DNA of 64,000 nucleotides, taken from assembly GCA_964494505.1 (NCBI GenBank), contig CAZBRO010000015.1, positions 27,876-91,875 on the forward strand. The letters run 5' to 3'. The position numbers were made by a program, and so were the translations under genes. Of this stretch, positions 21,617-52,835 are shown one piece after another (position 1 is the first letter of the stretch; every line of letters starts with the position of its first letter). The DNA comes from an uncultured Bordetella sp. GTDB taxonomy: Bacteria; Pseudomonadota; Alphaproteobacteria; Micropepsales; Micropepsaceae. A model generated the notes under the pieces. That model was not told the DNA's origin, did not search any database, and saw nothing but the letters and a program-made list of their open reading frames with translations.

Positions 21617-22399
21617 ATGAGAGCCACTGCGCGGCTTACGAAACGACGCCTCGTTCCGGCGATTGCCGCCGGTCTCACCTGCGCGGCGCTCGCGGCTGTG
21701 GCCGCAACCGCCCCGAGCGGCGACATTGCGGGCATATGGTGGGCGAATTCGTACAGCCCTTCCATCAAGGCATACCTCGTCGGCGGTGGTGACGTTCCGT
21801 TGAACGACGCCGGCAAGATGAAGTACGCCGAGAACCAAGCCGGGCTGAAGGACGGTTCCATGGTCGATCGGGCGCGGCGCTATTGTACGCCGGATGGCAT
21901 CCCCCGTTCCCTCTCGACGCCGTACCCGTTCCAGATCATCGACGCGCCACCGGGCCAGATGAGCTGGGTCTATGAGCAGAACCGTATGATCCGCGGCATT
22001 TCCATGGTGAAGCCGATCGACAGTCTGGAGAAGCTGTCGGTCCTGCCCTTCTGGAACGGCCACTCCGCCGGGCGCTGGGAGGGCGATACGCTCGTCGTAC
22101 AGTCGGCGGGCTTCAATGAGAGCACGTTCGTCGATGCAACCGGCTTGCCGCACAGCGATCAATTGCAGACCACGGAACGGGTGCGCAAGATCAATGGCGG
22201 CAAGCAGCTCGAGGATGTCATTACCGTCCACGATCCCTTTTATTATTCGCGCGATTGGCAAGCCCGCTATGTCTATGACAATCATGATGGGATGCGGATG
22301 ATGGAATACATCTGCGGCGAGCCCCACCGCGATATTTCCGGGATCAAAGGGGTGAATGAGGCCCGTGCCGCAAACGCGTCCCGCGCCCAGGGACGTTAA
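21617..22399 (+). CDS. secreted protein, divergent member (P1) of the PDF-tail family; lacks the IPDF head and PDF tail
   Basis: Start at ATG 21617 (GGGAGGA RBS) gives the signal peptide MRATARLTKRRLVPAIAAGLTCAALAAVAA. It shares the family core: RYCTPDGIPRS, GHSAGRWEGDTLVVQSAGF, GLPHSDQLQTTERV, EYICGE. Confidence 0.75.
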   Translation: MRATARLTKRRLVPAIAAGLTCAALAAVAATAPSGDIAGIWWANSYSPSIKAYLVGGGDVPLNDAGKMKYAENQAGLKDGSMVDRARRYCTPDGIPRSLSTPYPFQIIDAPPGQMSWVYEQNRMIRGISMVKPIDSLEKLSVLPFWNGHSAGRWEGDTLVVQSAGFNESTFVDATGLPHSDQLQTTERVRKINGGKQLEDVITVHDPFYYSRDWQARYVYDNHDGMRMMEYICGEPHRDISGIKGVNEARAANASRAQGR

Positions 22400-22416
22400 C
22401 AAACAAAGGCTGTGCT

Positions 22417-23295
22417 ATGGCAGGTTCCCGTTCTTCGATCGCGGCTCTCGCAGCAGGTGCGTTGGGCACGTGCGTTATTGCAGGCCTTGCATTGGCTGCC
22501 GACCTCCCGGCGCCGCATTTTCCATCCGGCATTCCGGACTTCTCGTCCAACAACATGGGTTGGGCATCCGATGGGATCGAGTTCCTTCCGGTGCCGGGTG
22601 AAAAATATGTGCCGATCACCAGCGATCCCCAGCACCCCTATTGCGGCAACCGGATCCTGGCAAAATGCAATTTCCAGAATCTGCCGCCCATCGGTGACAC
22701 CGGCAATCCGATCCTGCAACCATGGGCCGCAGCCGCGATGAGAAAGACGAATGCCGAGATTCTGGGCGGCAAAACTGTCTTCGAGGCGATGGGCCGGTGC
22801 TGGCCGGGCGGCATTCCGGGGATGATGCTGTTCACGGCGGAGCCGGCATATTTTCTGCAGACGCCCAAGGAGGTCACGATCCTGTATTCCCGCGGGCCAA
22901 ACATTCGGCATGTCTACATGAATGCGGAACACAGCCGGAATCCGGCGCCCACTTGGCTCGGCGAATCTGTCGGCCATTACGAGGGCGATGAGCTCGTTAT
23001 CGATACCATCGGGCTGAGCGACAAGACCTTCGTGGATTTCTACCATACGCCGCACACCGGCAAGCTGCACGTGGTCGAACGCTACAAATTGCTCGACGGA
23101 GGCAAGCGCATGCAGGGTTTCGTGACGATCGAGGATCCCGGCACGTTCACGACGAAATGGTCGGCGCTGCATTATTATATCCGGCACGACACTGCGATTG
23201 CGGATTCGGAGTCGATCTGCGCCGAGAATAACGACGCGAACTATTTCCACCAGGACGAGGCGCCAATTCCGCAGACAAAGACGCCCGACTTCTGA
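22417..23295 (+). CDS. secreted PDF-tail family protein P2
   Basis: Signal peptide, then SGIPDFSSNNMGW. Core: GRCWPGGIPGM, TWLGESVGHYEGDELVIDTIGL, YHTPHTGKLHVVERY, SICAEN. The last residues are APIPQTKTPDF followed by the stop. Confidence 0.85.
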   Translation: MAGSRSSIAALAAGALGTCVIAGLALAADLPAPHFPSGIPDFSSNNMGWASDGIEFLPVPGEKYVPITSDPQHPYCGNRILAKCNFQNLPPIGDTGNPILQPWAAAAMRKTNAEILGGKTVFEAMGRCWPGGIPGMMLFTAEPAYFLQTPKEVTILYSRGPNIRHVYMNAEHSRNPAPTWLGESVGHYEGDELVIDTIGLSDKTFVDFYHTPHTGKLHVVERYKLLDGGKRMQGFVTIEDPGTFTTKWSALHYYIRHDTAIADSESICAENNDANYFHQDEAPIPQTKTPDF

Positions 23296-23435
23296 TCTCC
23301 CGTATCGAGAGGTGATGTCATGCTCAAATCCGGTTAGTCGGACAGTTTGCTTCACGGAAGAAAGCCGTCCTCGGCATTGCCGGTCTTTGCTGCATTGCCG
23401 GAACGGCATTCGCTGCCGGAGCACAAGCTCCCGGT

Positions 23436-24200
23436 TTGCCTCCCGGGGTTCCGGACTTCTCTTCTGGCAATATGGGCTGGGCGGCGGCAAGTTTCGATTT
23501 GCTTCCGCCGGTTGACGGCGGGCCGGGCCCGGTAAAGAACGACCCGAGATTTCCGTTCTGCCGAAACGGCCAAGGCTGCACCGTGATGCCCCGCATGGCC
23601 GACCCGCACAGCCCGATATTGCTGCCTTGGGCGCAGGCTGTCGTGAACAGGTGGAACGACGACATTCAGAAGGGTAAGCAAGCCTTTGCCGCACAATCGC
23701 GCTGCTGGCCGGGCGGCGTTCCGAACATGCTGACCTACACGGCAGAACCGACCTATTTCCTGCAAACGCCGAACGAGGTCACGATACTGTACGAGCGCGG
23801 GCCCAATATCCGCCACGTCTATATGAACGTGCCGCACAGTCAAAATCTCATGCCAAGCTGGCTGGGTGAATCCGTGGGCCATTACGAAGGCGACACGCTC
23901 GTCATCGACACCATCGGCCTGAACGACAGGACCTTCGTCGACAATTACCGCACCCCGCACACGACTGAGCTTCACGTGGTCGAGCGCTACACCATCGCCA
24001 ACGATCGCAAGTCGATGATGGCAACCCTTACAGTGGAAGATCCCGGCACCTTTACGGGCAAATGGGGAGCGTCACAGCGATTCATTCTGCACAATCAGCC
24101 AATTTCGGAAGCCGAGAATGTTTGTGTGGAGAACAACGACGCGAATTACTTCCACGAAGACGAGACACCGATTCCACAGACGAAAACGCCCGATTTTTGA
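23436..24200 (+). CDS. PDF-tail family protein P3; its signal-peptide coding region is out of frame with the only plausible ATG
   Basis: The track ORF starts at TTG 23436 inside the sequence. The same frame stays open back to 23316 and encodes a signal peptide (SRKKAVLGIAGLCCIAGTAFAAGAQA) but contains no start codon. ATG 23320, which has a GAGAGG RBS, is in another frame. The protein ends ...TPIPQTKTPDF. Confidence 0.7.
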   Translation: MPPGVPDFSSGNMGWAAASFDLLPPVDGGPGPVKNDPRFPFCRNGQGCTVMPRMADPHSPILLPWAQAVVNRWNDDIQKGKQAFAAQSRCWPGGVPNMLTYTAEPTYFLQTPNEVTILYERGPNIRHVYMNVPHSQNLMPSWLGESVGHYEGDTLVIDTIGLNDRTFVDNYRTPHTTELHVVERYTIANDRKSMMATLTVEDPGTFTGKWGASQRFILHNQPISEAENVCVENNDANYFHEDETPIPQTKTPDF

Positions 24201-24231
24201 TAAGGGCGGCCCCGATAAGCACCGCTCAGGG

Positions 24232-24603
24232 TCATCTGCCTCCCCTCGAGCAGATCAAATCGGCGTTCGAAAGAGGGCCTCCCAACCGTCCGGTCGAAGG
24301 ACCATTGAAATAGCATTGGTCATTGGTCTTCAGCGCCTCCTTTGTGCGGCAGCGCGCATAGTCTGATGATCCGGCAGGGTAACCCGCCTTTACGCATGCT
24401 TGGTCGCCTGGCGAACAATCGCCCAACCCACGTCGCTGGCGCTCCGCATCAACGCTTGGGCTTTGAGCATATGGTTTGCACAGCGCGGCGATGGCCACCC
24501 CTCTGAGTTCCGTCGGAGCAAAGTCCGAATTCTCGCCGCCGGCCGTCGAACTGCAGCCAGCCAGCAACAGAAATGCGAGCAATATTCGCACAGCGCACTC
24601 CAA
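24232..24603 (-). CDS. small Cys-rich lipoprotein (hypothetical)
   Basis: N-terminal lipobox LLLAGC. 123 aa with 7 Cys. I recognised no family. Confidence 0.5.
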   Translation of the reverse strand: MECAVRILLAFLLLAGCSSTAGGENSDFAPTELRGVAIAALCKPYAQSPSVDAERQRRGLGDCSPGDQACVKAGYPAGSSDYARCRTKEALKTNDQCYFNGPSTGRLGGPLSNADLICSRGGR

Positions 24604-24986
24604 CGCTTTCCTGCAATTTAACAGACGAACAGGATCAGGACCTTTGAAATCGGCCGTGCACTGGCCCGCCGAAGTATGCGGAAGTGAAGCGCGGCGACGC
24701 GCCGGAACGCTTTAAAACGGCAGAGCAAGTACTCGATCTGGAAGGGCTGTGTGCATCGCTTCTTTCCGATAAAGCTTGCGCTCACAATCCGTACGCTTCC
24801 GTACATGTCCGGCTTTTAATGCAACGGACGTGCATATGCGGCTCGTAGGGTCCACACTCCCACGATTGAAGTTGTGCCGATGCGGACGCGTATGCGGCTC
24901 GCGGGGGAGAAATCGGCCTTAATGAAAACTGGGAGTGCAAAGACCAACTCAAAATCCAGAATTTCGCAAATGAGCGGGAGGGGAAA

Positions 24987-27926: not shown

Positions 27927-28211
27927 CAGAACCGCTGAAAGGCCGCGCTCAGTCTGCTCCGCGAAAAGAACCGCCCCTGTTCCGCTCTGCCAAGACTGCC
28001 CCCCAGGGCGCATCGGGATTGTCATCGGCAGCGGGCGGGTGATTGAAAGCATCCGCACGCGCCAACCTCGCATCGCGCGGGCCTAGGCATTTATGCGATC
28101 ACGAACCCGGCGGAGGCTGCGTCGCAAAGTGGCACTGTGGGGCGCCATTGACGCGCGTCTCAGCCCTTGAATACCGTTGGCCTCGGGCAGGAGGAAAGCA
28201 AGGTCGGTCGC

Positions 28212-30578
28212 ATGCTTGCGAAAGCGCTCTCTCTTCATCAAGAAGGCAAGCTTGATGAAGCGTCGGCCCTTTACCGCAAGATCCTGGCTCTCAACCCGAG
28301 AAATGCCGATGCCCTCCATCTGCTCGGCGTGATCGAACTCCAAAGAAAGAACCCATCAGCAGCCATCGAATTGATAGACCGAGCGATCGAGATCGACCCA
28401 AACAACGCAGTGTTTTTCTCTAACCGCGGCCTCGCTTTCGAAGGCCTGAAGCGTTTCCATGATGCACTCGCCAGCTACGGTCGTGCGCTGACGATCCAGC
28501 CCGGCTACGCCGACGCGCTCAATAACCGCGGCAATGCACTTCGAGCCCTGAACCGCTTCGATGACGCATTGGCGAGCTATGCTCGCGCATTGGCTGTCAA
28601 GCCCGACTACGCTGACGCTCTGAACAATCGGGGTGCGACGCTGAGCGATCTGAAGCGTTTCAGTCAAGCACTCGCCAGCTACGATCGTGCACTGGCGATC
28701 AAGCCCGACTATGCCGATGCGCTCAATAACCGAGGTGCAGCGCTAAGCCGCCTGCACCGCTTCGATGACGCCATCGACAGCTACGATCGCGCTTTGGCGA
28801 TCAGGCCTGACTATGCGGAAGCACTCAATAACCGCGGCAACGCGTTGAGCGAACTCAAGCGCTTCGACGACGCGATCGACAGCTATGATCGTGCCTTGGT
28901 AATCAGACCCGACTATGCCGAGGCGCTCTATAACCGGGGTGCAGCGCTGAACGACCTGAGGCGTCTTGAAGACGCACTGGTAAGCTACGATCTCGCCTTA
29001 GTCTGCAAACCCGACTATGCCGAAGCGCTCAATAGCCGGGGCGTCGCACTGAGCGGTCTGAAGCGCTTCGATCAAGCGCTTGCAAGCTATGACCGTGCTC
29101 TGGCGATCAAGCCAGATTATGCGGAAGCGCACTATAATCGTGGCAACGTCCTCAGCGATTTGAAGCACTTTGACGAGGCACTTGCCAGCTATGATCGCGC
29201 GCTGGCGATTGAGCCCAACTATGCGTTCCTTATTGGAATGCGGCTACATTGCAAGATGAGGATTTGCGATTGGCGTGCAATCGCCGAAGATACCTTTCTG
29301 CTTTCCGAACGGATTGAGTCGGGCGAAAAGGCGTCACTGCCATCCTCAGTCCTCGCCACGCCGTTGCCGGCAGCACTCCAGAAGAGATGTGCAGAGATCT
29401 TTATACGGGAAGAACATCCGCGAAGTTCCGTTCTACCAGACTTCAAAGCCCCGTACGCGCATGAGCGAATCCGGTTAGGCTATTTTTCGGCGGATTTTCA
29501 CAGCCATGCCACCGCCTATCTGACCGCCGGTTTATTTGAGCATCACGACAGAACCCAGTTTGAATTGATTGCCTTTTCGTTTGGTCCAGCGCAAGAAGAT
29601 GCGATGAGAACAAGGTTAAAGACCTCGTTCGCCCGATTTCTGGAGGTGAACACTCTTTCGGATAAGGACATCGCCTCGCTCGCCCGCAGCCTTGAAGTTG
29701 ACATAGCCATCGACCTTAAAGGATTTACGCAGGACAGCCGGACAGGCGTGTTCGCGATGAGACCGGCGCCGGTTCAGGTCAGCTATCTCGGATACCCCGG
29801 AACGATGGGGGCGGATTACATCGACTACCTGATCGCAGATGCAACTCTTATTCCAGAGGAACATCAAAAACACTATGCTGAAAAAATTGTCTACCTTCCT
29901 GACACATATCAAGTCAATGACTCAAAGCGCCTGATTGCCAACAGGCACTTTACCAGGACCGAATGTGGCTTGCCTGAAGATGGCTTTGTCTTTTGCTGTT
30001 TCAATAACAACTATAAGATTACCGGCGATATATTCGATGTATGGATGCGCCTATTGACTGCGGTCGATGGGAGCGTCCTATGGTTATTTGAAGATAATGC
30101 TTTTGCCATTAGGAATTTGAGAGCGGAAGCGCAGGCTCGCGGCATCGCACCTGAACGGCTTGTGTTTGCCAAGCGGATGGACTTGCCGGAGCATTTGTCT
30201 CGCCATCGATTGGCGGATTTGTTCTTGGACACTCTTCCCTACAACGCACATACCACTGCCAGCGACGCGCTCTGGGCTGGGTTGCCGGTCCTGACGTGTG
30301 TGGGCAAGACATTTCCAGGCAGGGTTGCGGCAAGCCTGCTCAATGCGGTCGGCCTGCCGGAGTTGATAACGCGAGACCTGGATGCGTACGAATGCTTAGC
30401 ACGCGACCTCGCCACGGATCCGAGTAAATTGCGGTCGATAAGGGACAAATTGGCGGCCAATCGTCTTACCCATCCATTATTCGACACAGCGCGCTTCGCC
30501 AGACATATTGAATCGGCCTATGCGTCGATGTGGACACGTCAACAGGCCGGGCTCACACCTCAGCGCATTTATGTTTAA
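28212..30578 (+). CDS. TPR-repeat protein fused to a GT41 (O-GlcNAc transferase / SPINDLY-like) glycosyltransferase domain
   Basis: No signal peptide. There are about 10 TPRs, then GYFSADFHSHAT, LPDTYQVND, FCCFNNNYKI and LDTLPYNAHTTASDALWAGLPVLTC. These match the eukaryotic OGT block ...CNGHTTGMDVLWAGTPMVT. The start was chosen at ATG 28212. Confidence 0.9.
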   Translation: MLAKALSLHQEGKLDEASALYRKILALNPRNADALHLLGVIELQRKNPSAAIELIDRAIEIDPNNAVFFSNRGLAFEGLKRFHDALASYGRALTIQPGYADALNNRGNALRALNRFDDALASYARALAVKPDYADALNNRGATLSDLKRFSQALASYDRALAIKPDYADALNNRGAALSRLHRFDDAIDSYDRALAIRPDYAEALNNRGNALSELKRFDDAIDSYDRALVIRPDYAEALYNRGAALNDLRRLEDALVSYDLALVCKPDYAEALNSRGVALSGLKRFDQALASYDRALAIKPDYAEAHYNRGNVLSDLKHFDEALASYDRALAIEPNYAFLIGMRLHCKMRICDWRAIAEDTFLLSERIESGEKASLPSSVLATPLPAALQKRCAEIFIREEHPRSSVLPDFKAPYAHERIRLGYFSADFHSHATAYLTAGLFEHHDRTQFELIAFSFGPAQEDAMRTRLKTSFARFLEVNTLSDKDIASLARSLEVDIAIDLKGFTQDSRTGVFAMRPAPVQVSYLGYPGTMGADYIDYLIADATLIPEEHQKHYAEKIVYLPDTYQVNDSKRLIANRHFTRTECGLPEDGFVFCCFNNNYKITGDIFDVWMRLLTAVDGSVLWLFEDNAFAIRNLRAEAQARGIAPERLVFAKRMDLPEHLSRHRLADLFLDTLPYNAHTTASDALWAGLPVLTCVGKTFPGRVAASLLNAVGLPELITRDLDAYECLARDLATDPSKLRSIRDKLAANRLTHPLFDTARFARHIESAYASMWTRQQAGLTPQRIYV
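28452..29230 (+). repeat. about 7.6 tandem copies of a 102-bp unit (homogenised 34-aa TPRs) inside the GT41 gene
   Basis: Successive 34-aa units read RF(D/H/S)(D/Q)A(L/I)(A/D)SY(D/A/G)RALA(I/V)(K/R)PDYA(D/E)ALNNRG.ALS.L(K/N/H). The period is exactly 102 bp starting at cgt 28452. Confidence 0.85.
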
Positions 30579-30714
30579 CTCTGTTTCGGCCGGCACTCTG
30601 GGCCAGGCCGGATAACCCCGTGAAGATTAACTATCTTTCGAGAAGTCCCTCGATAGCGCGGGCGAATTCGCTAGGACTGCCGCTCGAAAATGGAGCCGTT
30701 GCGAGGACAGCCTA

Positions 30715-31449
30715 GTGAAAAGTAATGTCATCAAACCAATTCTTGTTGCAAGCGCCCTGGGTTTAGGAATTTTTGGCTTCACGATCGACGCACGCGCAAC
30801 GCTTCTTGTCAGCGCATCGGTCGGCGGCGCTCCGAATGGCGCCAATTATGTTAATTTCGACAACCTGCCTCTCGGCAATGGGGCGGGCGTTAGCGGTGGC
30901 GTGGGAGTGACCTTTACCTCAGGGGACGCCGCTGCCGTCGCAGGGGCATTGGTGAACCGATATGCAGCGCCATACCTGTCCAACGGAAATGGCGCGTCCT
31001 TCGGTGATTTCAGCAACGGTCCCGACACCACAAACTATTTGTCCACCGGGATAGGCTCGGTCACTCTGACCTTCTCCACGGATCATCATTATCTGGGCCT
31101 TCTCTGGGGATCCGTCGATGGTTATAACACGCTGAGCTTTTACGACGGCGCAAATTTGGTAGGATTGATTACCGGCGCCGATGTGTGGGCGAGCGCCAAT
31201 GGCGATCAAGGCGTCAACGGCAGCTACTACGCAAATATCACATCAGACATTCCGTTCGATTCCGTCGTCGCCTCAAGCAGCAACTATGCATTTGAGTTCG
31301 ACAATGTGGCATATGTTTCGGAAGCCGGAACAAATGGCGCTAATCCTCCGGCAAATGTACCAGAACCTTCTGCGCTTGCGCTTTTCTGCACCGCAGTTCT
31401 TGGCTTTGTGGGACTCGGGCGAACTCGCCGCCGCCGTGCACGGGCATAA
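30715..31449 (+). CDS. PEP-CTERM sorting-signal surface protein
   Basis: GTG start and an N-terminal signal peptide. The C-terminus NVPEPSALALFCTAVLGFVGLGRTRRRRARA is VPEP + TM helix + Arg cluster, which is the exosortase recognition tag. The body contains YLGLLWGSVDGYNTLSFY. Confidence 0.85.
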   Translation: MKSNVIKPILVASALGLGIFGFTIDARATLLVSASVGGAPNGANYVNFDNLPLGNGAGVSGGVGVTFTSGDAAAVAGALVNRYAAPYLSNGNGASFGDFSNGPDTTNYLSTGIGSVTLTFSTDHHYLGLLWGSVDGYNTLSFYDGANLVGLITGADVWASANGDQGVNGSYYANITSDIPFDSVVASSSNYAFEFDNVAYVSEAGTNGANPPANVPEPSALALFCTAVLGFVGLGRTRRRRARA

Positions 31450-31723
31450 TCCAAAGCGGCCATTTCAATCTTACATTCGAGTGCAGTCCGACGTAACACG
31501 TTGATGCCCATGCTTGCCTTCATGCCGCCGGCGAGCGGTGGCCATCCGAGCTTTCGAGACTCTTACACCGAAGTGTGGTGACCAACTGACTCGATGCACG
31601 TAAATTCACACCCGGGCCTCAGCGGTTCATCTCGACGGCTAAGGATTAATGCCCCCCGGCTTGTCCTCCACCGAGCCGCTGGGGCCCACAACGCTAATCT
31701 TTTTGCGACCGCAAGGGGCTTGC

Positions 31724-32155: not shown

Positions 32156-32225
32156 TCCATTGACTTGCCCCCGTTGCCGGCGGCTACTTACACGCGCCAC
32201 ACATAATTGATTCCGCAAACCCTGC

Positions 32226-34139: not shown

Positions 34140-34193
34140 AGCGTTGTAGCCCTCCCCGACAGATTTCCCGGGTTGGCCGACAGGGGCATACGT

Positions 34194-35303
34194 CTATTTC
34201 GTCTTCACATATTTGCGCAGATTGTGCGCCGCGACATCAGCGGAATAGATCGCGCCTTCGTCGTCTGCGGCAATGCCTGATGAGGTTGTGCCGCGGGTCA
34301 AGCTGTTCGGGTCTGCGGGATCAGGAATGAATGCCTTAAGCGAACCGTCCAAGGCATTGCCGACGACGATACCCCTGATCTCGCCTCTTTTGGCCGCCGG
34401 ATCGGGAAATCCAGAGCCCACATAGATTGTGTCGTCCTTGCCCACAAACACGGAACTTGGCTCGCCAAACTGCTTCCACACGGCCAGTAATTTACCGTCC
34501 AAATCGAAGACCTGGATCCGCTGATTGCGGCGGTCGGCAACATAAAGACGATTCTGCGTGCCCCCAATGAAGATGTCGTGCGGTTCGTCGAAATCGCCCG
34601 GTGCGGAGCCTCGCTTGCCCCAGCTTTTGATGAATTTTCCTTCCTTGGAAAATTTCAGCACCCGGCCATTGTTGTGTGCGTTGGGCAGATGGCCGTCCGT
34701 GACGAAGATATCGCCATTGGGTGCAATAGCGACGCCGGTCGGCCGATCGAACGTATCCGGGCCGCTGCCTGACACACCTTCCTTGCCAAGCGTCATCAGC
34801 ACTTTGCCGTCTGGCGAAAGTTTCAACACCTCCTGGCCCATGACGACACCAGCCGCGTTCCTGGCGGACATTCCGAGCACCGTCTCGGCGTCATTGACGT
34901 CCGTCACCCAAAGATTTCCGCCCTGATCCACGGTGAAGCCATGAGGGTAGGCGAACAGACCGGCGCCAAAGCTCTTCAGCAGTCTGCCGGCGTGATCGAA
35001 TTCCAGAATCGGCGGATTGGCGGGCCCGCGATTGATACAAACCGCACTGCCCGGAGGCACCGTATTGAAACAACGATGAAACACCCAAACATTGCCGTTT
35101 GGGACGACATGAACGCGGATGACTTCACCCCAATGGCCACCATTCATACTTTGCGGCAGCGTGGGCCACGTGGGATCGAGCCGGTAAGGATTGGGCAGGT
35201 CGCGAGGATTGGGATATTGCGTCTGCGCTACCGCGGCGAACGCAAAAATAGTGGCGGCGCCGCCAGCCAAAAGATGTGCCATAGCTTTTCTCGCGCGCGA
35301 CAT
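34194..35303 (-). CDS. secreted NHL-repeat beta-propeller protein, second copy
   Basis: ATG 35303 with a GGAGGA RBS gives MSRARKAMAHLLAGGAATIFAFAAVAQ. Blades: GNLWVTDV, GDIFVTDGH, NRLYVADRRNQRIQVFD, TIYVGSG. It is collinear with 1333..2433. Confidence 0.85.
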   Translation of the reverse strand: MSRARKAMAHLLAGGAATIFAFAAVAQTQYPNPRDLPNPYRLDPTWPTLPQSMNGGHWGEVIRVHVVPNGNVWVFHRCFNTVPPGSAVCINRGPANPPILEFDHAGRLLKSFGAGLFAYPHGFTVDQGGNLWVTDVNDAETVLGMSARNAAGVVMGQEVLKLSPDGKVLMTLGKEGVSGSGPDTFDRPTGVAIAPNGDIFVTDGHLPNAHNNGRVLKFSKEGKFIKSWGKRGSAPGDFDEPHDIFIGGTQNRLYVADRRNQRIQVFDLDGKLLAVWKQFGEPSSVFVGKDDTIYVGSGFPDPAAKRGEIRGIVVGNALDGSLKAFIPDPADPNSLTRGTTSSGIAADDEGAIYSADVAAHNLRKYVKTK

Positions 35304-35614
35304 TCTATTCCTCCCCAGTTTCCGTTCCACAAGCTTAATCGAAAAACTAGCTTATCGGCGCGTTTGATATCAAATCTTGCATGCAATTGGGATTATCCTC
35401 CGGGCTTCGCCTGCCCTGGGACCCGCGGTCCGGTGGTTGTCGATTTGGGAGCGTGTGTGATAATCAAACGATTCTATCGCGCGCGAAACCAACACGCGTA
35501 GTTGCCGTCTTTGCCGGCACGTGACCGAAAGCGAGGCAACAGTTTTGGGGCCGTTCAGATGTGTCCAAGTGCAATCCGCCACGGAGCGCGGCGCCGCGCT
35601 TGAGATATCCGTCC

Positions 35615-37900
35615 ATGCACGACCGATTTGATGCCGCGCTGGCTGCCCAGAAGGCGGGCAATCTCGCCGAAGCGATGCAGATTTGCCGGGACATCCTCAA
35701 AGCCGACGCAAGGAATTTCAAGGCGCTCTATCTGCTCGGTTATGTCCATGCACAGTCCGGCGAGATCGCCGAAGCGGAGCGCCTTATTGCGCAAGCGATA
35801 GGCGTCAATCCGCGCTCGCCGGATGCCCTGTACAATCGCGGCTGTCTGCTCCAGAAGCTGGATCGGCTCCAAGACGCGATTGTTTGCTTTGACAGCGCTA
35901 TCGCACTCAACCCCTATTATATCGACGCCCTGATCAATCGCGGCGTCACCCTGGCAGCGCTTAAGCGATACGGCGAAGCGGCCTCCGCTTTGGACCGAGC
36001 GTTGCGCATTCGGCCCGGCGATGCCGCGGTATGGATAGAGCGCGGAAATGCTCTCACCGGAGCGCGGCGGTATTCGGAGGCGCTTTCCAGCTATGACAAG
36101 GCGCTTGAGGTCAGGCCGAATTATGTGGAAGCCTGGGAAAATCGGGGGCGCGCTCTGATGCTGCTGGAGCGCCACTCCGAGGCGTTGACGGATTTCGACA
36201 AAGTGTTAGCGGCGGATCCGCGGAGCGTGGCCGCGTGGACCGGCCGCGGCAATGCACTTGGCGAACTTCGCCGCGACGGGGAAGCGCTCGCCGCATTCGG
36301 CCGCGCACTAAGGGGCAGGCCGGACAGCGTCGGGGCGCTCCTCGGCCGCGGCTATGTGTTGCTGCGGCTCATGCGCTACGAGGAAGCGATTGCCGATTAC
36401 AATAGGGCGCTCGCCATCGCCCCCGATTCTGTCCAGGCGCTCATCAACCGCGCTGCCGGTTTATTCGAACTGAAGCGCCTTGATGAGGCGATCCGCGATT
36501 ACGAGCGGGCGCTCGCGCTCAATCCGGACATCCCCTTTGCCCGCGGCAATCTCGCTTACTACAAGCTGCACGCTTGCGATTGGCGCCATCTTGAAGAAGA
36601 GCGAAACGCCATCTCTGAAGGCCTGCGTGCGGGGAAATCCATCGTATCGCCCTTCGTCAGTGTAGCGCTTTCGCCCTCAGCCGAGGAGCAATCACGCTCC
36701 GCTCACGTATGGATCGCAGACAAGTATCCACCAGCGCCGCCTTTGTGGCGGGGCGAAATCTACCGGCACGATAGGATGCGGATTGCCTATCTGTCGGCGG
36801 ATTTCAATGCCCATGCGACGGCGCATCTCATGTCGGGTGTCTTCGAGCACCATGATCGGCAGCGCTTCGAGACCATTGCGATCTCCTATGGTCCGGACGA
36901 TGAAAGCGGGATGCGAACGCGGCTGCAGACGGCATTCGATCGCTTCATCGATGTGCGTACAAAGAGCGATTTCGAAATCGCGGCGCTCTTGCGTCAGCTC
37001 GAGGTGAATATCGCCATCGATCTTAAAGGGCTGACCAAGGATGCCCGCAGCGGAATCCTGAGCCACCGTCCGGCGCCCATACAAACCCATTATCTGGGTT
37101 ATCCGGGGACCATGGGGGCGCCCTTTATGGACTATATCATCGCCGACGGGATCGTGATCCCGGAGGATCAGCGGCGATTCTACACCGAGCAGGTGGTCTA
37201 TCTTCCCGATACGTATCAATGCAACGACGGAGCGCGGGACGATACGGGGCCGGCAAAAGCCCGGGCCGAATACGGATTGCCCGAAACAGGCTTCGTCTTT
37301 TGCTGCTTCAACAACAATTTCAAGATTCTCCCCGACCTGTTCAAAATCTGGATGCGCCTTCTCGCCCGGGTCGATGGCGCGGTCCTGTGGCTCATGGCCG
37401 ACAACGCCAACGCAGCCCGCAATCTCGCTCAGGCCGCGAGCGAACACGGCATCGCGCCGGATCGATTGATTTTCGCGCCGCGCATAGGCGTGGCCGATCA
37501 TTTGGCGCGGCACCGCGCGGCCGATCTCTTTCTCGATACACTTCCCTATGGCGCCCACACCACGGCAAGCGACGCGTTATGGGCGGGACTTCCCGTCATT
37601 ACGTGCCTCGGTTCCACGTTCGCGGGCCGTGTGGGCGCAAGCCTGTTGTCGGCCATCGGCTTGCCGGAATTGGTCGCCCGGTCGCTCGAGGAATACGAAG
37701 CCCTAGTGCTGAAGCTTGTCCGCGATCCGGCAGCGCTTGCAGCGATCAAGGAGAAGCTGGCGCGCAACCGCGACACGCACGCGCTCTTCGATACATCCCG
37801 GTTCACGCGCAATCTCGAAGCCGCGCTGATCACGATGTGGGAGCGTCATCGGCGGGGTGAACCGCGGCAAGGCTTTACCGCCGCGTCCTCGCGCGAGTGA
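35615..37900 (+). CDS. TPR-repeat protein fused to a GT41 (OGT/SPINDLY-like) glycosyltransferase domain, second copy
   Basis: Start at ATG 35615. TPR array, then AYLSADFNAHAT, LPDTYQCND, FCCFNNNFKI and LDTLPYGAHTTASDALWAGLPVITC. It is a paralog of 28212..30578. Confidence 0.9.
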   Translation: MHDRFDAALAAQKAGNLAEAMQICRDILKADARNFKALYLLGYVHAQSGEIAEAERLIAQAIGVNPRSPDALYNRGCLLQKLDRLQDAIVCFDSAIALNPYYIDALINRGVTLAALKRYGEAASALDRALRIRPGDAAVWIERGNALTGARRYSEALSSYDKALEVRPNYVEAWENRGRALMLLERHSEALTDFDKVLAADPRSVAAWTGRGNALGELRRDGEALAAFGRALRGRPDSVGALLGRGYVLLRLMRYEEAIADYNRALAIAPDSVQALINRAAGLFELKRLDEAIRDYERALALNPDIPFARGNLAYYKLHACDWRHLEEERNAISEGLRAGKSIVSPFVSVALSPSAEEQSRSAHVWIADKYPPAPPLWRGEIYRHDRMRIAYLSADFNAHATAHLMSGVFEHHDRQRFETIAISYGPDDESGMRTRLQTAFDRFIDVRTKSDFEIAALLRQLEVNIAIDLKGLTKDARSGILSHRPAPIQTHYLGYPGTMGAPFMDYIIADGIVIPEDQRRFYTEQVVYLPDTYQCNDGARDDTGPAKARAEYGLPETGFVFCCFNNNFKILPDLFKIWMRLLARVDGAVLWLMADNANAARNLAQAASEHGIAPDRLIFAPRIGVADHLARHRAADLFLDTLPYGAHTTASDALWAGLPVITCLGSTFAGRVGASLLSAIGLPELVARSLEEYEALVLKLVRDPAALAAIKEKLARNRDTHALFDTSRFTRNLEAALITMWERHRRGEPRQGFTAASSRE

Positions 37901-37901
37901 C

Positions 37902-38780: not shown

Positions 38781-38916
38781 ATGACCTCCCCTTCGTTCCA
38801 ATGGCTCACGGCTGTTCCGGTCCGATGGCCGGCCGCCGATTGGGGATAGCATAATCCGGCGATCGCGCTCGAACAACGTCGCCAAGCCGGCGCGGGGGAC
38901 CAAGGATCGAAGAGGC

Positions 38917-39816: not shown

Positions 39817-40316
39817 TTTCGACACGGATTCAAGCACCGGAAGACCCCTCTTGTTTTCATCATTTTGCGGAATCCTAACGCAGATATGACGGGCGGGCAA
39901 CGACGGCGGCCGATTCGTGCTCATTCGCCCCCCCGATCTTGTACAATAGAGCAGAAGCGACCCCGACCTAACCGATGCTTCACAACCGAGGAGCCGGAAC
40001 CTTTGTTTCGAGTTCTGCAAAGTGGCCATGAGCGACCACGATGGCTGGCGCGATTTTGAATATCGTGGGCGCGTGAAGAATTATCCTGCAATCGATGTCG
40101 CATCAGACGTGCCCACATGGTCAGGCGACGCGGCGGCATCAGAGCCCGTGGTATCCTTCTGCCCGGCTGTTCCCGCAACCGGCCCGCGGGGACTGGAGCG
40201 CCGTGCTCCACGAAATATCATCGGACCTGAAGGCGCTTCTCGCGAGGCCGCACCGGGGAAGCCCTGACGATCAGTTCACGCTTCTCTCGAACGTCTCTCC
40301 TCTTGCGAGGCTCGCT

Positions 40317-40643
40317 CTACTTCTTGTCGCCTGCAGGACCGCCATTCCCGATATGTTCGGTGAGATACTTGGTCACGGCGTCGACTTCCTCAGGGAACAG
40401 CTGAGCGCCGTTGGAAACCATCTGCTCAACGGTCTTGCGCCATTCTGCGGGTGTCTTGCGCGCATTTAGGATGCGATCCGAGGAATGACAGGCCCCGGCA
40501 CAGTTCTCGATCACCAATTGACGGCCCTCGCCATCCGGCAATTTGCTCGCCAGCGGATCGGATTCCCTCGCCTGCGCGGCCTCCGCGAGACCAAGGCAAA
40601 AGACAAAAATGCCCGCCAAACGGCGGCCGGCACGATGACTCAT
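40317..40643 (-). CDS. small secreted cytochrome-c-like protein with a CxxxCH motif
   Basis: ATG 40643 with a GAGGAGGAG RBS. Signal peptide MSHRAGRRLAGIFVFCLGLAEAAQA. The mature roughly 83 aa contain ENCAGACHSSDRILNARKTPAEWRKTVEQMVSNGAQL. From memory this resembles the haem-binding domain seen in the quinohaemoprotein amine dehydrogenase alpha subunit (CxxCH ... R.T..W..T..RM). It lies 56 nt downstream of the ThDP gene on the same strand. Confidence 0.6.
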   Translation of the reverse strand: MSHRAGRRLAGIFVFCLGLAEAAQARESDPLASKLPDGEGRQLVIENCAGACHSSDRILNARKTPAEWRKTVEQMVSNGAQLFPEEVDAVTKYLTEHIGNGGPAGDKK

Positions 40644-40699
40644 ATCCCAATTCTCCTCCTCACAACCGCCCAGCCGAAATTGCTGCGCCGTTCGATGGC

Positions 40700-42601
40700 T
40701 CATACCTGCTTCGTGCGCCTCTCGGCCACCGAGTATTTCGGATACCACGTCGATTCGGCGAGCGGGCCGACACGTTCGGCCACCACGTCGAGCACGAAAG
40801 GCCGGCCGTCCTTCAACTCCCGCACGCCGCGCTTGAGCGCATCGGCAAGCTCGGCCGGCTTGGTCACGGTCGCCCCCTTGACGTCGAAGCCCTTGGCCAA
40901 TTGTTCGAAGCTGACATCGGGGTTGCCGAGATAGCTTCCCATGTCCTGCTGAGCCTCGCGCATTCTCGGCGCGTTGGGCATCACGCGCATGCGCGTATCG
41001 TTGAAGCTTCGGTTGTTGAAAACGATATACATCACGGGCGCCTCATGGCGTCTGGCTGCCCACAGCGCTTCGACTTGGCCCATCAGGAAAGCGCCGTCGC
41101 CGAGCAGGCAGACGACCTGACGATCGGGCTTGGCCATCTTGATGCCGACGGCGGCGCCAACCGACCATCCGAGCCCCGACCCGACCGTGCGACCGAACAG
41201 CTCCTTCTTGCCGCGGCCGAATTCGAACCACGGCAAGGTGCGCGGCATAGCCGAGTTGAACTCGTGTGTGATGATCGCATCCTGCTCGAGCACAAGGTTG
41301 GCTTCATATGCCACGCGCTCCCAGGCGATGGGCACGTCGTCGCGCCGCTTTGCAAGCACCTGCTCGCGGGCCGCCTGCACTCGTTTGTTGAAAGCGCCCG
41401 ATTCCTGGATGCGACCCTTCGCCGCCGCCTTCTGCGCGGGCGTCATCGATTGCCCCAATGCGTCGACGAGCATCTTGGTGGATTCTTTGAGATCGGCGAT
41501 CACCGCAAGGTCGGTGGGGTTGACGAGCGCCACGTCATTGGGCGCGGTGCGGAAATCGATGAGCTTCCACTCTCTTGGAATCGCCGGCCCGGCACCGCCC
41601 TGATAGAAATTGTGCGCGCCCATGTTCAACATCAGATCGGCGTCGCGCAGCGGCCGAAGACCTGCAACCGCCCTATCTGTCTGGCCGATATAGAGCGGGT
41701 GTCCGGTCGGGAAATCCGTATACGGGCTGATGCCCTGCACGACCTGAAGACCCGCGAGTTCGGCAAGCTTCACCACGTCGTCATAGGCATCCGAGCGCCA
41801 CACTTCGTGGCCCACGGTCATGAACGGCTTCTTGGCCTCCAGCAGCATTTTCGCTGTCTGCTCCACCAGCCGCGCTTCGGGCTTCGTGCGAATCGGAAGG
41901 GTAAAATATTCCTTCGGGATAATTTCGGCCCTGGCGACGGCGCCACCATTCGGAATCGCCATGTAGCAGGGGCCGCCAGGCGGCGTCATCGATATCCGGA
42001 TTGCGTTGCGCAGGATTTCCGGGATACGGCGGGGGGCCGGGACCTCGAAACTCCAGCGCGTGAATTGTTTGGTGATCTCGACAATGTCGTCTACCGATTC
42101 GAAGCCGTCATGCCCCAGATCATCCTGCCCCGTCGTGAAGGATGACACGACCAGCGGGACGCCATCCTTCTTGGCATTGAACATGTTCAGCATCTGGTGC
42201 GCGGTGCCAACATCGCCATGGATGTTGACGAAGGTCGGATCGTTGCTCGCAAGCGCATAGCCGGACGCGATCGCGGTCACGATGTTTTCTTCGGTCGCCA
42301 GGATCAGATGGATGTCGTTGTCCCCCACCATGGCATCGAGCATCGGCCCCGAACCCGTGCCGTTGCCGTAGAAGACGTGCTTGACGCCGGCTGCCTTGAG
42401 CTGCTGCACCAGAAGATAGCCGCCGGTGCCTTCCACGGTGCGGAATCGCCCAGTCGGCATTTCCGCGGCTTCGACCATCGGCGCCAAAGCCGCCAAAACG
42501 GATTCGGCCGCTGCGACCGTGAAGCCGGCCGTGGCCATTCCTTTCAGGAAGCCACGACGATCGAGGTTCCTTGAAATATAGGCGTGCACCAAGTCTCGCA
42601 T
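40700..42601 (-). CDS. thiamine-diphosphate-dependent enzyme (acetolactate synthase / pyruvate oxidase superfamily) with a twin-arginine export signal
   Basis: 633 aa. The N-terminus SRNLDRRGFLKGMATAGFTVAAAESVLAALAP matches the Tat consensus (S/T)RRxFLK. It is followed by the three-domain ThDP architecture, including the ThDP motif LLGDGAFLMGQVEALWAARRHEAPVMYIVFNN (GDG...NN). Confidence 0.9.
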   Translation of the reverse strand: MRDLVHAYISRNLDRRGFLKGMATAGFTVAAAESVLAALAPMVEAAEMPTGRFRTVEGTGGYLLVQQLKAAGVKHVFYGNGTGSGPMLDAMVGDNDIHLILATEENIVTAIASGYALASNDPTFVNIHGDVGTAHQMLNMFNAKKDGVPLVVSSFTTGQDDLGHDGFESVDDIVEITKQFTRWSFEVPAPRRIPEILRNAIRISMTPPGGPCYMAIPNGGAVARAEIIPKEYFTLPIRTKPEARLVEQTAKMLLEAKKPFMTVGHEVWRSDAYDDVVKLAELAGLQVVQGISPYTDFPTGHPLYIGQTDRAVAGLRPLRDADLMLNMGAHNFYQGGAGPAIPREWKLIDFRTAPNDVALVNPTDLAVIADLKESTKMLVDALGQSMTPAQKAAAKGRIQESGAFNKRVQAAREQVLAKRRDDVPIAWERVAYEANLVLEQDAIITHEFNSAMPRTLPWFEFGRGKKELFGRTVGSGLGWSVGAAVGIKMAKPDRQVVCLLGDGAFLMGQVEALWAARRHEAPVMYIVFNNRSFNDTRMRVMPNAPRMREAQQDMGSYLGNPDVSFEQLAKGFDVKGATVTKPAELADALKRGVRELKDGRPFVLDVVAERVGPLAESTWYPKYSVAERRTKQV

Positions 42602-42832
42602 GCGACCCTCCCCAGCTCCGTTTTGTCTCCGGCAGAATTACCCACCGCAGGGCCCTTCGGCACGTCGGCGCGACGCAAAACTGACATTCACAGCAGGCTG
42701 AAATCGCGGCGCGCGAACGAAAAAAGAAACGAACCGACCAAGAGCGATTTATTCCTGAAAATATGCGCGCAACCGGGCATTTGGGTCAAGGCAAGTACTG
42801 GAACGCCGGCGAATTCTGAGCCACAAATTCCT

Positions 42833-44035
42833 ATGACCTCAGAAGATCTCTTGCTGGAAGCGCAACATCTTGCCCGGCGTGGGCAGGTGCCGGCAGCAGC
42901 CGAAATATACCACCGCATCCTGCGTACAAATCCGCGGCACTTCGAGGCCCTGTCCGCACTCGGCGCCATCTATTTCCGCCATGGACAGTTCGACCGGGCG
43001 CAATATCTCCTTGCCGAAGCGTCGAAAATCGACCCGCTGTTTACTGACGGCCTCTGCCTGCGCGGCATCGCTCTGTTGCAGATGAACCGTCATAGTGAGG
43101 CGCTCGCTTGCTTCGACCGCGCGTTGGCCGTCCGGCCCGATTTCGTCGAAGCGCTGTGCAATCGCGGCATCGCACTCCAGGAGATGCAGCGATATGACGA
43201 GGCGCTTGCAACCTTCGACACTGCGGTGGCGATTCAACCCCGGCACGCGCTAAGCTGGAATAACCGCGGCAGCACGCTCGCTGCGATGCAGCGAAACGCC
43301 GAGGCGCTGGAAGACTTCGAGCGGGCGTTGGAGATCGATCCCGATCTGAAGGAAGCAAGGGAGAACCGCGAGCAAGTCTCCTTCAAGCTGGGCCGTACCA
43401 GCCGTGCTCCGGCGGTCTACCTGCAACATCTGTTCGATCGGTTTTCCACCTTTTACGACGACAACATGCTGAAGACGCTCGGTTATGTCGGCCACACGCA
43501 TTTGCGCAAGCTGGCCGAGCGCGTCGTTCCCGGGATCGCCCCGCCATTGCGGATTCTCGACCTCGGCACCGGCACAGGATTGGTCGGCGAAGCCTTCAAG
43601 GACCTTGCTGCCGGCGGATGCCTCGATGGCATCGATCTTGCCCCGCTGATGATCGAAAAGGCCCGGGAACGCGGCGTTTACAACGATCTGATCCTGGGCG
43701 ATCTGGAAGTGGTGCTGATGCGTGACGGTCCTTCCTATGATCTCATCCTGTCCGCGGACACGATGATTTACATCGGGGATCTCGCACCCACGCTGACCGG
43801 TGTCGCACGACGCCTGAGGCCCGGGGGATTCTACTTCTTCATGGTGGAAAGCGGGGACGGCGAGAGCTGGGAATTCACCGCGAATTCCCGGTACCGCCAC
43901 GGCCCCGATTACTTGCGCGCCGCTGCCGCGCGCGCGGGCCTTGAATTTGTCGACATCATGGATTGCACGCTGCGCACGGAATTGTCGGTCCCGGTGCCCG
44001 GATTCGGGGTGGCGCTGTCAAAGCCCGTCGCCTGA
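42833..44035 (+). CDS. TPR-repeat protein fused to a class I SAM-dependent methyltransferase domain
   Basis: Start at ATG 42833. About 6 TPRs of the same subtype as the GT41 proteins (FEALSALG, FVEALCNRG, ALSWNNRG). Then SAM motif I ILDLGTGTGLVGE, and LILSADTMIYIGDL and LRPGGFYFF. Confidence 0.85.
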   Translation: MTSEDLLLEAQHLARRGQVPAAAEIYHRILRTNPRHFEALSALGAIYFRHGQFDRAQYLLAEASKIDPLFTDGLCLRGIALLQMNRHSEALACFDRALAVRPDFVEALCNRGIALQEMQRYDEALATFDTAVAIQPRHALSWNNRGSTLAAMQRNAEALEDFERALEIDPDLKEARENREQVSFKLGRTSRAPAVYLQHLFDRFSTFYDDNMLKTLGYVGHTHLRKLAERVVPGIAPPLRILDLGTGTGLVGEAFKDLAAGGCLDGIDLAPLMIEKARERGVYNDLILGDLEVVLMRDGPSYDLILSADTMIYIGDLAPTLTGVARRLRPGGFYFFMVESGDGESWEFTANSRYRHGPDYLRAAAARAGLEFVDIMDCTLRTELSVPVPGFGVALSKPVA

Positions 44036-44038
44036 GAT

Positions 44039-44938
44039 TCAGAAATCCGGCTTGTCCGCCCGCGGAACAGGCGGCATGCCGATGTCCACCGGTTGAACGG
44101 CTGTCTCCGCGCAAATCTCCTCCGACAAGAAGGGCTCCGCATCGGCCGCTATGTTGCCGAGTTCCGGCGTACGGCGGGATTTGAAATCGACCCGGCCGTA
44201 TTTCTGCAATGCATGCCAGGGCTGGGTGAACGCGCCCGGATCCTCGATCGTGACTTCCACCTCCAGTGTGGTACCAATCCGGTGGAAGCGCTCCACCACA
44301 TGCAGCTTTTCCGTATGCGGCGTGTGGTAATTGTCGACCGTCGTCTGTGCGTTCATCCCGATCGTGTCCACAACCAGCGTATCGCCATTCTCGTAATGGC
44401 CGACGGATTCGCCGAACCAGGACGGCTTCAGGTTCTTGGAGTGCTCCTGATTCAGGAACACGCGGCGTACCATGTGATCGTTCTGCCAGATCAGCCAGAC
44501 CTCTTTCGGCGTCTGGACGAAAAAGAACGGCGTCGCGCGCACCAGCAACATGTTCGGGACGCCGGCCGGGCGGCAGGAATTGGCAACCGAGTAGAGCGGC
44601 TTTCCCGACATAACCTGGTCATTGATAGTCTTCAGCGCATCTCTGACCCACGGCATGAGGGCGGGATGGCTCAGATCCGCGACCCGGAATGTCCCGCCGC
44701 CGGGCGCGCCATTCGGCCTGTAAGGATGGGCGGGATCGTCTTTGACGGGACCAAGCCCGCTTTTGGGCGGCAGGAAGTCGTTGCTCCGGGTGATCCATCC
44801 AATCCCATTCTCGTAAAAATCGGGAATGGAGGCATTCGGATTGCCGCTGTCGGCCGCCATCGTGATGCTTATGCAGGCGACCGAGGCAAGAAGGCCGCCC
44901 GCAACGAGAGACCGTATGCTGGAGACGGATCGAAACAT
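44039..44938 (-). CDS. secreted PDF-tail family protein P7
   Basis: Signal peptide MFRSVSSIRSLVAGGLLASVACISITMA, then SIPDFYENGIGW. The core is as in P5 and P6. It ends MPPVPRADKPDF. Its stop is 3 nt from the stop of the convergent TPR-methyltransferase gene, and the gene lies 153 nt downstream of TBDR2 on the same strand. Confidence 0.9.
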   Translation of the reverse strand: MFRSVSSIRSLVAGGLLASVACISITMAADSGNPNASIPDFYENGIGWITRSNDFLPPKSGLGPVKDDPAHPYRPNGAPGGGTFRVADLSHPALMPWVRDALKTINDQVMSGKPLYSVANSCRPAGVPNMLLVRATPFFFVQTPKEVWLIWQNDHMVRRVFLNQEHSKNLKPSWFGESVGHYENGDTLVVDTIGMNAQTTVDNYHTPHTEKLHVVERFHRIGTTLEVEVTIEDPGAFTQPWHALQKYGRVDFKSRRTPELGNIAADAEPFLSEEICAETAVQPVDIGMPPVPRADKPDF

Positions 44939-49267: not shown

Positions 49268-49332
49268 ATTGACGTCGGCCTTTCCTTCGCGATCAGGCAA
49301 AAGAATGGCATCTCGCCTTCAAGGGAGGAATC

Positions 49333-49959: not shown

Positions 49960-49988
49960 AACTTCGATCTTGCAGGAGGAATGTCGGG

Positions 49989-52700: not shown

Positions 52701-52771
52701 ACGCGCCTATCCCTCATAACGACGCCCGATTTCGAGCAGTCAGTACCATTGTTTTCGCTTGCCGATCCATC

Positions 52772-52789: not shown

Positions 52790-52835
52790 GCATAAGCGGC
52801 TTAATGCCGCTTCATTCATCCGTCACAGAGTTGAC

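Follow-up and report, generated by a model that had tools for sequence, protein, structure and literature searches.

A very large family of unannotated exported proteins in soil Alphaproteobacteria, with a predicted calycin-like barrel and, in its main subfamily, a near-invariant C-terminal Phe

Seven related genes, here called P1 to P7, are found in a stretch of 64,000 nucleotides (the window) from contig CAZBRO010000015.1 of assembly GCA_964494505.1 (positions 27,876 to 91,875, forward strand), which is deposited under the name of an uncultured Bordetella sp. and placed by GTDB in the Micropepsaceae. These seven open reading frames (ORFs) are paralogues from a very large and unannotated family of Sec-exported proteins of soil Alphaproteobacteria, and the most likely location of the family is the periplasm. 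The predicted structures place the proteins, reasonably securely, in the fold class of the calycin barrels, with most resemblance to fatty-acid-binding (FABP) and cellular retinol-binding (CRBP) proteins, and P2 to P7, referred to as PDF-type, share a C-terminal tail that ends in Asp-Phe. We propose that they are periplasmic calycin-like proteins which bind small molecules and carry a C-terminal latch that docks on the protein itself, a reading to which we would give a probability of roughly 45%.

The size of the family became apparent when 1.84 billion cluster representatives were searched exhaustively with a profile: 13,216 clusters (at 50% identity) matched at E<1e-3 and 6,867 at E<1e-10. 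A word-indexed search with P7 found at least 6,870 homologues, all named 'hypothetical protein' and none carrying a Pfam domain. A first-pass annotation of the window, made from the DNA letters alone, had been unable to assign the family to a named domain, and our searches bear this out. Comparison of all seven copies with Pfam-A by hmmscan (E<=1) gave no family, lipocalins and FABPs (PF00061 and related) included; NCBIfam at the same threshold gave nothing near a curated cut-off, the three matches to P5 (E 0.18-0.25) being at chance level; and a profile search of the PDB (E<=10) gave no sequence match. Since no lipocalin or FABP profile was matched, the family lies, as judged by sequence profiles, outside every sequence-defined lipocalin/FABP family. 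A literature search on the WEGDTLVV motif, on DUF6152 (a domain found beside several family genes) and on Micropepsaceae with TonB-dependent receptors found nothing relevant.

Members come predominantly from Micropepsaceae and their relatives, with some from metagenome-assembled genomes (MAGs) of Xanthobacteraceae and Acidobacteria. In a plasmid collection only remote sphingomonad relatives were found, annotated as hypothetical. These proteins, for example WP_273620495.1 of Novosphingobium humi, are 31-34% identical to the family over the core and share with it an N-terminal RPDFTGVW, C.(F)GMP, WEGD.LVVET, PHS..MHVTER and the second conserved Cys, but they end in an unrelated Ser/Gly/Asp-rich sequence in place of the P-x-A-x-K-P-D-F tail. 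A hydrophobic N-terminal segment is present in 111 of 115 close homologues and in six of the seven copies in the window; this, together with an invariant pair of Cys, fits the extracytoplasmic location suggested in the first-pass annotation. The possibility that these are lipoproteins was rejected, as there is no conserved lipobox Cys and the Cys in the signal region of P7 (alignment column 22) is not conserved.

When a profile built from 81 aligned homologues was run on a six-frame translation of the window, it matched exactly the seven ORFs and nothing else, at the coordinates and on the strands first described (Table 1; E-values from 4e-134 to 4e-83 for P2-P7). The identities among the copies represent three layers of duplication: P5, P6 and P7 are 70-74% identical to each other and P2 and P3 59%, the remaining PDF-type pairs are 36-44% identical, and P1 is 26-29% identical to all others. 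P6 and P5 are in tandem with P6 upstream, and P4 has a 27-residue insertion after the HVVER strand. The collinear core reported for the seven copies, consisting of C.P.G(I/V)P, W.G.S.G..EGD.LV, PH(T/S)..LHVVER and (I/V)C.E, is present. Its two Cys (C122 and C276 in P7) are invariant in all seven copies and in 81 of the 81 aligned homologues, and we infer that they form a disulfide. An extra pair of Cys is found in the N-terminal extension of P2 (C76/C84) and of P3. No exact 8- or 9-mer is common to three or more of the regions upstream of the seven copies, and thus there is no shared promoter or operator motif of that kind.

The earlier description of seven paralogues of 260-308 residues, each with a Sec signal peptide, holds for six copies but not for P3, which is shorter: its ORF opens with the TTG directly ahead of VPDF and contains no signal peptide. 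A signal-peptide-like stretch, RKKAVLGIAGLCCIAGTAFAAGAQA, does lie in frame upstream of P3; in this frame there is no ATG, GTG or TTG after the TGA at 23313-15. The ATG at 23320, which is preceded by a Shine-Dalgarno sequence, is in a different frame from P3 and is followed by a stop after 5 codons. Because six independent assemblies, made from different samples, carry one and the same leader region, the defect in the P3 start must be real in the population, and an assembly error can be ruled out as its cause. From its sequence, the leader (23313-23435) is to be regarded as either a fixed frameshift or pseudogene, or a case of unusual initiation, and P3 itself is probably a pseudogene or poorly exported.

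Table 1. Family members in the window, the leader of P3, and the segments encoding the last ten residues of the PDF-type copies
Feature	Position	Strand	Description
P1	21617..22399	+	260 aa, exported; sister ('P1-type') subfamily; profile E 7e-32
P2	22417..23295	+	292 aa, PDF-type, signal peptide; IPDF at residue 39; tail PIPQTKTPDF-stop
P3	23436..24200	+	254 aa from TTG, PDF-type; VPDF at residue 5; tail PIPQTKTPDF-stop
P4	32226..33152	-	308 aa, PDF-type, signal peptide; IPDF at residue 40; tail FVPTADKADF-stop
P5	37902..38780	-	292 aa, PDF-type, signal peptide; VPDF at residue 39; tail PIPRADRPDF-stop
P6	38917..39816	-	299 aa, PDF-type; IPDF at residue 37; tail PVPRADMPDF-stop
P7	44039..44938	-	299 aa, PDF-type; IPDF at residue 38; tail PVPRADKPDF-stop
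Broken leader of P3	23320..23435	+	out-of-frame ATG; signal-like sequence without canonical start
C-terminal decapeptide, P2	23263-23292	+	
C-terminal decapeptide, P3	24168-24197	+	
C-terminal decapeptide, P4	32229-32258	-	
C-terminal decapeptide, P5	37905-37934	-	
C-terminal decapeptide, P6	38920-38949	-	
C-terminal decapeptide, P7	44042..44071	-	

Structure prediction proved informative where sequence searches were not. AlphaFold2 gave models of P7, from the 81-sequence alignment (predicted local distance difference test score, pLDDT, 82; predicted TM-score, pTM, 0.80), and of P1 (pLDDT 87.6, pTM 0.82), in which the elements follow the same order; the core common to both consists of one initial beta-strand, a helical insert and a meander of eight antiparallel strands. 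The P7 model has a strand at residues 46-49 after IPDF....G, then a well-ordered extension of 45 residues, helices at 96-132 including the loop with C122, and eight antiparallel strands at 138-251, with no strand after 251. One N-terminal and eight meander strands are predicted to make the closed antiparallel up-and-down barrel of 8-10 strands by which calycins are defined. Comparison of both models with the PDB by Foldseek returned calycins only, namely FABP, CRABP and CRBP, followed by avidins and lipocalins, with best E-values of 3.6e-3 (P7) and 2.3e-3 (P1), a probability of about 1.0 and target-normalised TM-scores of 0.45-0.58; no close solved relative of either model was found there. The most conserved strand of the family, (E)GDTLVV(D)T (GDTLVVDTI, residues 185-193 of P7), is a buried strand of the barrel with a pLDDT above 95 in the models. 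It is nearly identical to the TonB box DTLVVTA of Escherichia coli BtuB, a resemblance which its position in the models suggests is probably coincidental.

The N-terminal motif can be understood in terms of the same fold. The (I/V)PDF reported for six copies is indeed found in them; where the PDF-type precursor is intact (P2, P4-P7), the motif begins between residues 37 and 40. It had also been suggested that this tripeptide mirrors the C-terminal PDF, and that the two ends of the protein might pair as strands, and neither idea is upheld. Among close homologues PDF (55) and PNF (53) are about equally frequent at the N-terminal site, the P1 subfamily has PD(I/L) there, and fused two-domain proteins keep the motif at their internal junction, as IPEL...FAW or IPDF...YAW; the tail, for its part, has no predicted strand in the AlphaFold2 model. 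In the models the N-terminal motif is situated immediately before the first strand (46-49 in P7, 39-43 in P1), and this position, together with its internal occurrence in fusions, argues that it belongs to the fold and that the N-terminus need not be free. The likeness of the two PDF tripeptides is therefore probably a coincidence. It may be that (I/V)P(D/N)F...G-W acts as the lead-in and first strand of the barrel, comparable to the calycin G-x-W, rather than as a signal. In calycins the G-x-W of the first strand, preceded by a short 3-10 helix, packs on a basic residue of the last strand. We take the G47-W48 of P7 to resemble this signature, by which the calycin barrel is closed. G47 is near-invariant and W48 invariant, and K246 and R249 lie on the last strand of the P7 model.

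The C-terminal tail is the most constant feature of the PDF-type proteins. Among homologues with an alignment reaching the end of the profile, the last residue is Phe in 334 of 340 and the last two are Asp-Phe in 305 of 340, which greatly exceeds what chance would give, and the logo of the tail reads P(-10) [IVLM](-9) P(-8, 98%) x A(-6, 79%) x [KRT](-4) P(-3, 75%) D(-2, 91%) F(-1, 100%). The terminal Phe is also regularly spaced from the last Cys, at 23 residues in 255 of 341 proteins and at 20-25 residues in 323, whereas the loop preceding this Cys varies from 26 to 45 residues. In the window P2-P7 all have a stop codon directly after the Phe, as had been described, P4 ending in ADF and the others in PDF. 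The motif is always at the true end of the protein and is specific to one subfamily; neither the P1 subfamily nor the sphingomonad relatives with the same core have it. The first-pass annotation had allowed that a characterised domain, or a tail confined to this genome, would reduce the case to ordinary paralogy; no such domain was found, and [PA]DF-COOH is kept far outside this genome. In the P7 model the pLDDT falls to 45 in the tail and then rises over the last ten residues (45, 57, 66, 73).

This tail does not correspond to a PEP-CTERM, GlyGly-CTERM or LPXTG-type sorting signal, in which a short motif leads into a hydrophobic helix and then a basic cluster, as nothing follows the terminal Phe, and no description of this D-F-COOH tail was found in the literature and libraries searched. 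The window does encode a PEP-CTERM protein (30715-31449, +; VPEPSALAL...RRRRARA), which is unrelated to the PDF tail and from whose presence it follows that an exosortase system should exist in the organism. As exported proteins with an invariant terminal Phe and free carboxylate, the family members invite comparison with the C-terminal beta-signal of outer-membrane proteins and with the DegS-activating peptides that end in YxF-COOH. It could be asked whether the family consists of small outer-membrane beta-barrels in which the terminal Phe is a beta-signal recognised by the beta-barrel assembly machinery, given the Sec signal peptide, the barrel of eight antiparallel strands and the terminal aromatic residue. 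We find this scarcely credible. A beta-signal is hydrophobic at -3, -5, -7 and -9; the family has P at -3, D (or E) at -5, Q (or T) at -7 and P at -8 and -10. Moreover, the Phe ends a Pro-rich tail about 48 residues past the last strand with no terminal amphipathic strand, the strands are charged on both faces (e.g. HVVERFHRI, LEVEVTIED), the conserved Cys pair and helical insert are atypical, and the Foldseek matches are soluble calycins with no outer-membrane protein among the 50 matches listed. On the tail logo and the soluble type of barrel this interpretation was rejected.

Soluble calycins offer a better comparison. FABP, CRBP, CRABP, avidins and lipocalins appear, in the models, to share with the family the first strand, the helical insert and the antiparallel meander barrel, although there is no detectable sequence similarity and the family proteins are twice the size and Sec-exported. 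The ordered N-terminal extension, the invariant Cys pair and the Pro-rich 23-residue tail ending in D-F-COOH set them apart from the calycins. The C-terminal 'Brad-tag' of bradavidin is described as an intrinsic ligand (PMC5398887), and a C-terminal extension of streptavidin C1 is likewise described as binding to the protein's own biotin sites (PMC7924230). Avidin-type tails that act as intrinsic ligands provide a precedent, within the same fold class, for a tail that serves as latch or pseudo-ligand.

The family probably works like the calycins. The proteins would be soluble periplasmic barrels that bind small molecules, the ligands being probably hydrophobic or aromatic and possibly anionic. 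The tail, [IVLM]-P-x-A-x-[KRT]-P-D-F-COOH, would be an arm of fixed length tethered through the second Cys by the C122-C276 disulfide, and its terminal Phe and carboxylate could dock either on the surface of the same molecule or on an adjacent subunit to form a latch or an intrinsic pseudo-ligand. Expansion of the paralogues, to as many as 11 tandem copies elsewhere, might then diversify ligand specificity in the manner of orphan solute receptors.

The genomic context of the family was studied by scanning one genome per species, which gave more than 552 related stretches, and by counting neighbours within +/-8 kb of the best 77 loci, from about 25 MAGs. Most of these loci are from Micropepsaceae or unclassified Alphaproteobacteria, with some from Xanthobacteraceae, two from Acidobacteria and one from a MAG labelled Bordetella. 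They contain 159 called family members, and 38 of the loci have at least two copies. The largest tandem arrays, in Micropepsaceae and related MAGs, comprise 11 copies (L017 130-15013) and 9 copies (L006 135-15140) within 16 kb, and in the arrays L017, L006, L075 and L014 nearly every copy has the [PA]DF end. Three kinds of gene recur with the long arrays, encoding a secreted tannase/feruloyl esterase and lying within the array (two MAGs), a convergently transcribed transporter of the major facilitator superfamily (MFS) with its best match to the aromatic-acid/H+ symporter family (four MAGs), and a PcaD-like hydrolase (two MAGs). In their genomic behaviour, and by analogy in that respect only, the genes can be likened to those of the Bug/TctC orphan solute receptors (PF03401), exported proteins with dozens of paralogues per genome that, scattered or in arrays, likewise sit beside diverse catabolic and transport genes. 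TctC proteins differ in having a two-lobe Venus-flytrap fold instead of a calycin barrel, and no cognate membrane component was identified for the family.

No conserved partner gene was found next to the family in these loci, the commonest neighbour cluster being TctC with 11 of 77. Among 132 flanking genes, Pfam assigned 7 to MFS, 6 each to DUF6152 and Metallo-beta-lactamase, 4 each to Aldehyde dehydrogenase and Cytochrome c, 3 each to PQQ dehydrogenase, TctC, Dienelactone hydrolase and HtrA-like protease, and 2 to Tannase. DUF6152 proteins are small and exported, with a mature N-terminus HHSF; they occur in 9 of the 77 loci (e.g. L012 7364-7774, L082 7552-7935) and are the commonest same-strand neighbour of the family. 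A DUF6152 gene also adjoins the remote relative on the Novosphingobium humi plasmid.

Several observations weigh against the proposal of a binding protein with a self-docking tail. The calycin likeness is weak, with E-values of about 3e-3 and root-mean-square deviations of 4-8 A, and covers the barrel alone. To the P7 tail, which has a pLDDT of only 57-73, DSSP assigned no regular structure. Covariation of the last 13 residues with the core (mutual information with average product correction, effective number of sequences about 198), which recovered pairs on neighbouring strands, gave 18 tail-core pairs above the 99th percentile when about 30 were expected and a signal-peptide control gave 24; 11 of the 18 fall in residues 101-123, near Cys122, in a total that is not above background. 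Neighbours are heterogeneous, no Pfam family exceeding 7 of the 132 flanks, the MFS and PcaD matches are under the curated cut-offs, and MFS transporters normally work without binding proteins. Finally, R158, D191, D202, E216, R217, D233 and E273 of P7 are invariant and would also suit an enzyme.

These residues, with H166 and H213, are invariant in the 81 homologues, and they raise the possibility that the family consists of periplasmic calycin-barrel enzymes such as esterases, isomerases or lyases, whose substrates would be plant-derived aromatic esters or compounds related to them, with the arrays providing variants of substrate specificity. Enzymes with a lipocalin fold exist, and the catabolic neighbours (tannase/feruloyl esterase, metallo-beta-lactamase-fold proteins, dienelactone hydrolases, PQQ and aldehyde dehydrogenases, cytochromes c) would be in keeping with such a role, which is compatible with either model of the tail. 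It is nevertheless doubtful, in that the best structural matches are all binding proteins and there is no likeness to any enzyme family in Pfam, NCBIfam or the PDB. The first-pass annotation had considered a metal or enzyme site on the strength of invariant His, Glu and Asp, but every His varies among the seven copies, with H213 replaced by Q and H166 missing in P1, and H208 replaced by F in P4.

It could also be argued that P-D-F-COOH is not docked on its own protein but is a tag read in trans, by a PDZ protease or chaperone (HtrA, Prc, Ctp), a TPR (tetratricopeptide repeat) protein or a sorting or export factor, and that it controls turnover, assembly or delivery of the family proteins. PDZ-type binders of C-terminal peptides, such as DegS, DegP and Prc, read tails with a terminal Phe and free carboxylate, and a strictly terminal Phe (334/340) with its free carboxylate on an extended Pro-rich tail is what the family has. 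The moderate model confidence of the tail is as expected of an unpacked segment, and the lack of detectable covariation with its own core is consistent with this. DegS-activating YxF peptides have Tyr at -3, where the family has P followed by D, in a Pro-rich coil on a soluble-looking barrel. Three of the 132 flanking genes do encode single-PDZ HtrA-like proteases, but all three are convergent with the family gene and come from related MAGs with similar gene order, so that they are probably not independent. The TPR-transferases of the window have no signal peptide, and a full TPR-GT41 gene is found in 1 of 77 loci. No partner gene is conserved beside the family, and a defined geometry on the same protein would account more readily for the fixed 23-residue spacing from the disulfide Cys. 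On balance a tag read in trans seems unlikely. The HtrA/DegS-like protease genes are at L008 9138-10355, L011 9927-11015 and L028 8982-10055, two of these loci sharing a flanking TPR gene.

P1 was the exception to the six of seven copies with PDF motifs in the earlier description, and both motifs are indeed absent from it, GDIAGIWW replacing PD(I/L)SG.W at its N-terminus and its C-terminus being ...RAQGR without the tail. Its sequence assigns it to a distinct subfamily with conserved termini of its own, namely (A/T)PD(I/L)SG(I/T)(Y/W)W at the N-terminus and ...YVCGEPHRDISGVAGVRRP at the C-terminus. This subfamily returned 1,779 matches, with no Pfam domain and all named 'hypothetical protein'. 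P1 lies 17 bp upstream of P2, and a P1-type gene directly upstream of a PDF-type gene was seen at four other loci (L012, L039, L046, L071); in addition the two types are fused in 500-aa proteins (P0025, P0026, P0030, P0053, P0124). Adjacency and natural fusion together argue for a functional or physical pair, and where both types are present, as with P1-P2, they probably act as one. A more far-reaching scheme would have P1-type and PDF-type proteins as obligate heterodimers and the tail as an unrecognised periplasmic signal, either a pseudo-ligand gating the barrel of a new and very large class of periplasmic binding proteins for plant-derived aromatics, or a tag by which a PDZ-type or other receptor would direct delivery or turnover; we hold this to be improbable.

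The first-pass annotation had drawn attention to the TonB-dependent receptor and TPR-transferase genes near the family, and the window does contain three TonB-dependent receptors, two TPR-GT41 genes, a TPR-methyltransferase and a TPR-sulfotransferase. One might suppose from this that the family proteins are accessories of the receptors, or substrates of the TPR-fused glycosyl-, methyl- and sulfotransferases, or both. P7 follows a receptor gene of the same strand at a distance of 153 bp, P1-P3 are just upstream of another, and the four TPR-transferase genes are interspersed among the copies. Beyond the window this association was not maintained. Receptors related to those of the window were found in 4 of 77 loci, and the full TPR-GT41 is as rare as noted above; no receptor is among the 25 commonest Pfam families of the 132 flanking genes, and the copies share no upstream motif. 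The receptor/TPR-transferase neighbourhood is local to this window, an association as a family-wide feature was rejected, and a role of this kind is very improbable.

Other genes of the window deserve mention. The four TPR-transferases (28167-30578, +; 35561-37900, +; 42584-44035, +; 54713-56731, -), of which two are GT41 and the others the methyltransferase and the sulfotransferase, are cytoplasmic proteins with N-terminal TPR arrays, and their genes are interspersed with those of exported proteins. Exported NHL-repeat beta-propellers are encoded at 1222-2433 (+) and 34194-35330 (-), and their homologues (cluster 6) are found within 8 kb of family genes in 7 of 77 loci. At 40700-42601 (-) is the gene of a thiamine-diphosphate enzyme, with benzoylformate decarboxylase as its best NCBIfam match (below the cut-off) and DRRGFLKG as its twin-arginine signal; the gene overlaps that of a small c-type-cytochrome-like protein at 40317-40748 (-). 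A periplasmic thiamine-diphosphate enzyme exported by the twin-arginine route with a cytochrome partner would be unusual. Three phosphatidylethanolamine-binding protein paralogues are in tandem at 48674-50594 (+), beside a TonB-dependent receptor gene; here too a small binding protein has multiplied locally into paralogues. The gene at 51801-54140 (+) encodes a 779-aa protein with a C-terminal DUF5690 (E 2e-148) and an unannotated N-terminal half of 380 residues.

The family described here is abundant and yet absent from Pfam, NCBIfam and the PDB, and the Micropepsaceae and related soil Alphaproteobacteria to which it mostly belongs are known almost only from metagenomes. Its fold class, the conserved predicted disulfide and the near-invariant tail of fixed length are concrete handles for experiment. 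Should the tail gate the barrel as a pseudo-ligand or serve as a recognition tag, the periplasm would have gained a new type of C-terminal signal; even if it is a mere structural latch, a well-delimited new domain family deserves a database entry. Neighbours resembling tannase/feruloyl esterases and aromatic-acid transporters suggest that, in soil, these proteins may help to handle plant-derived aromatics within the periplasm.

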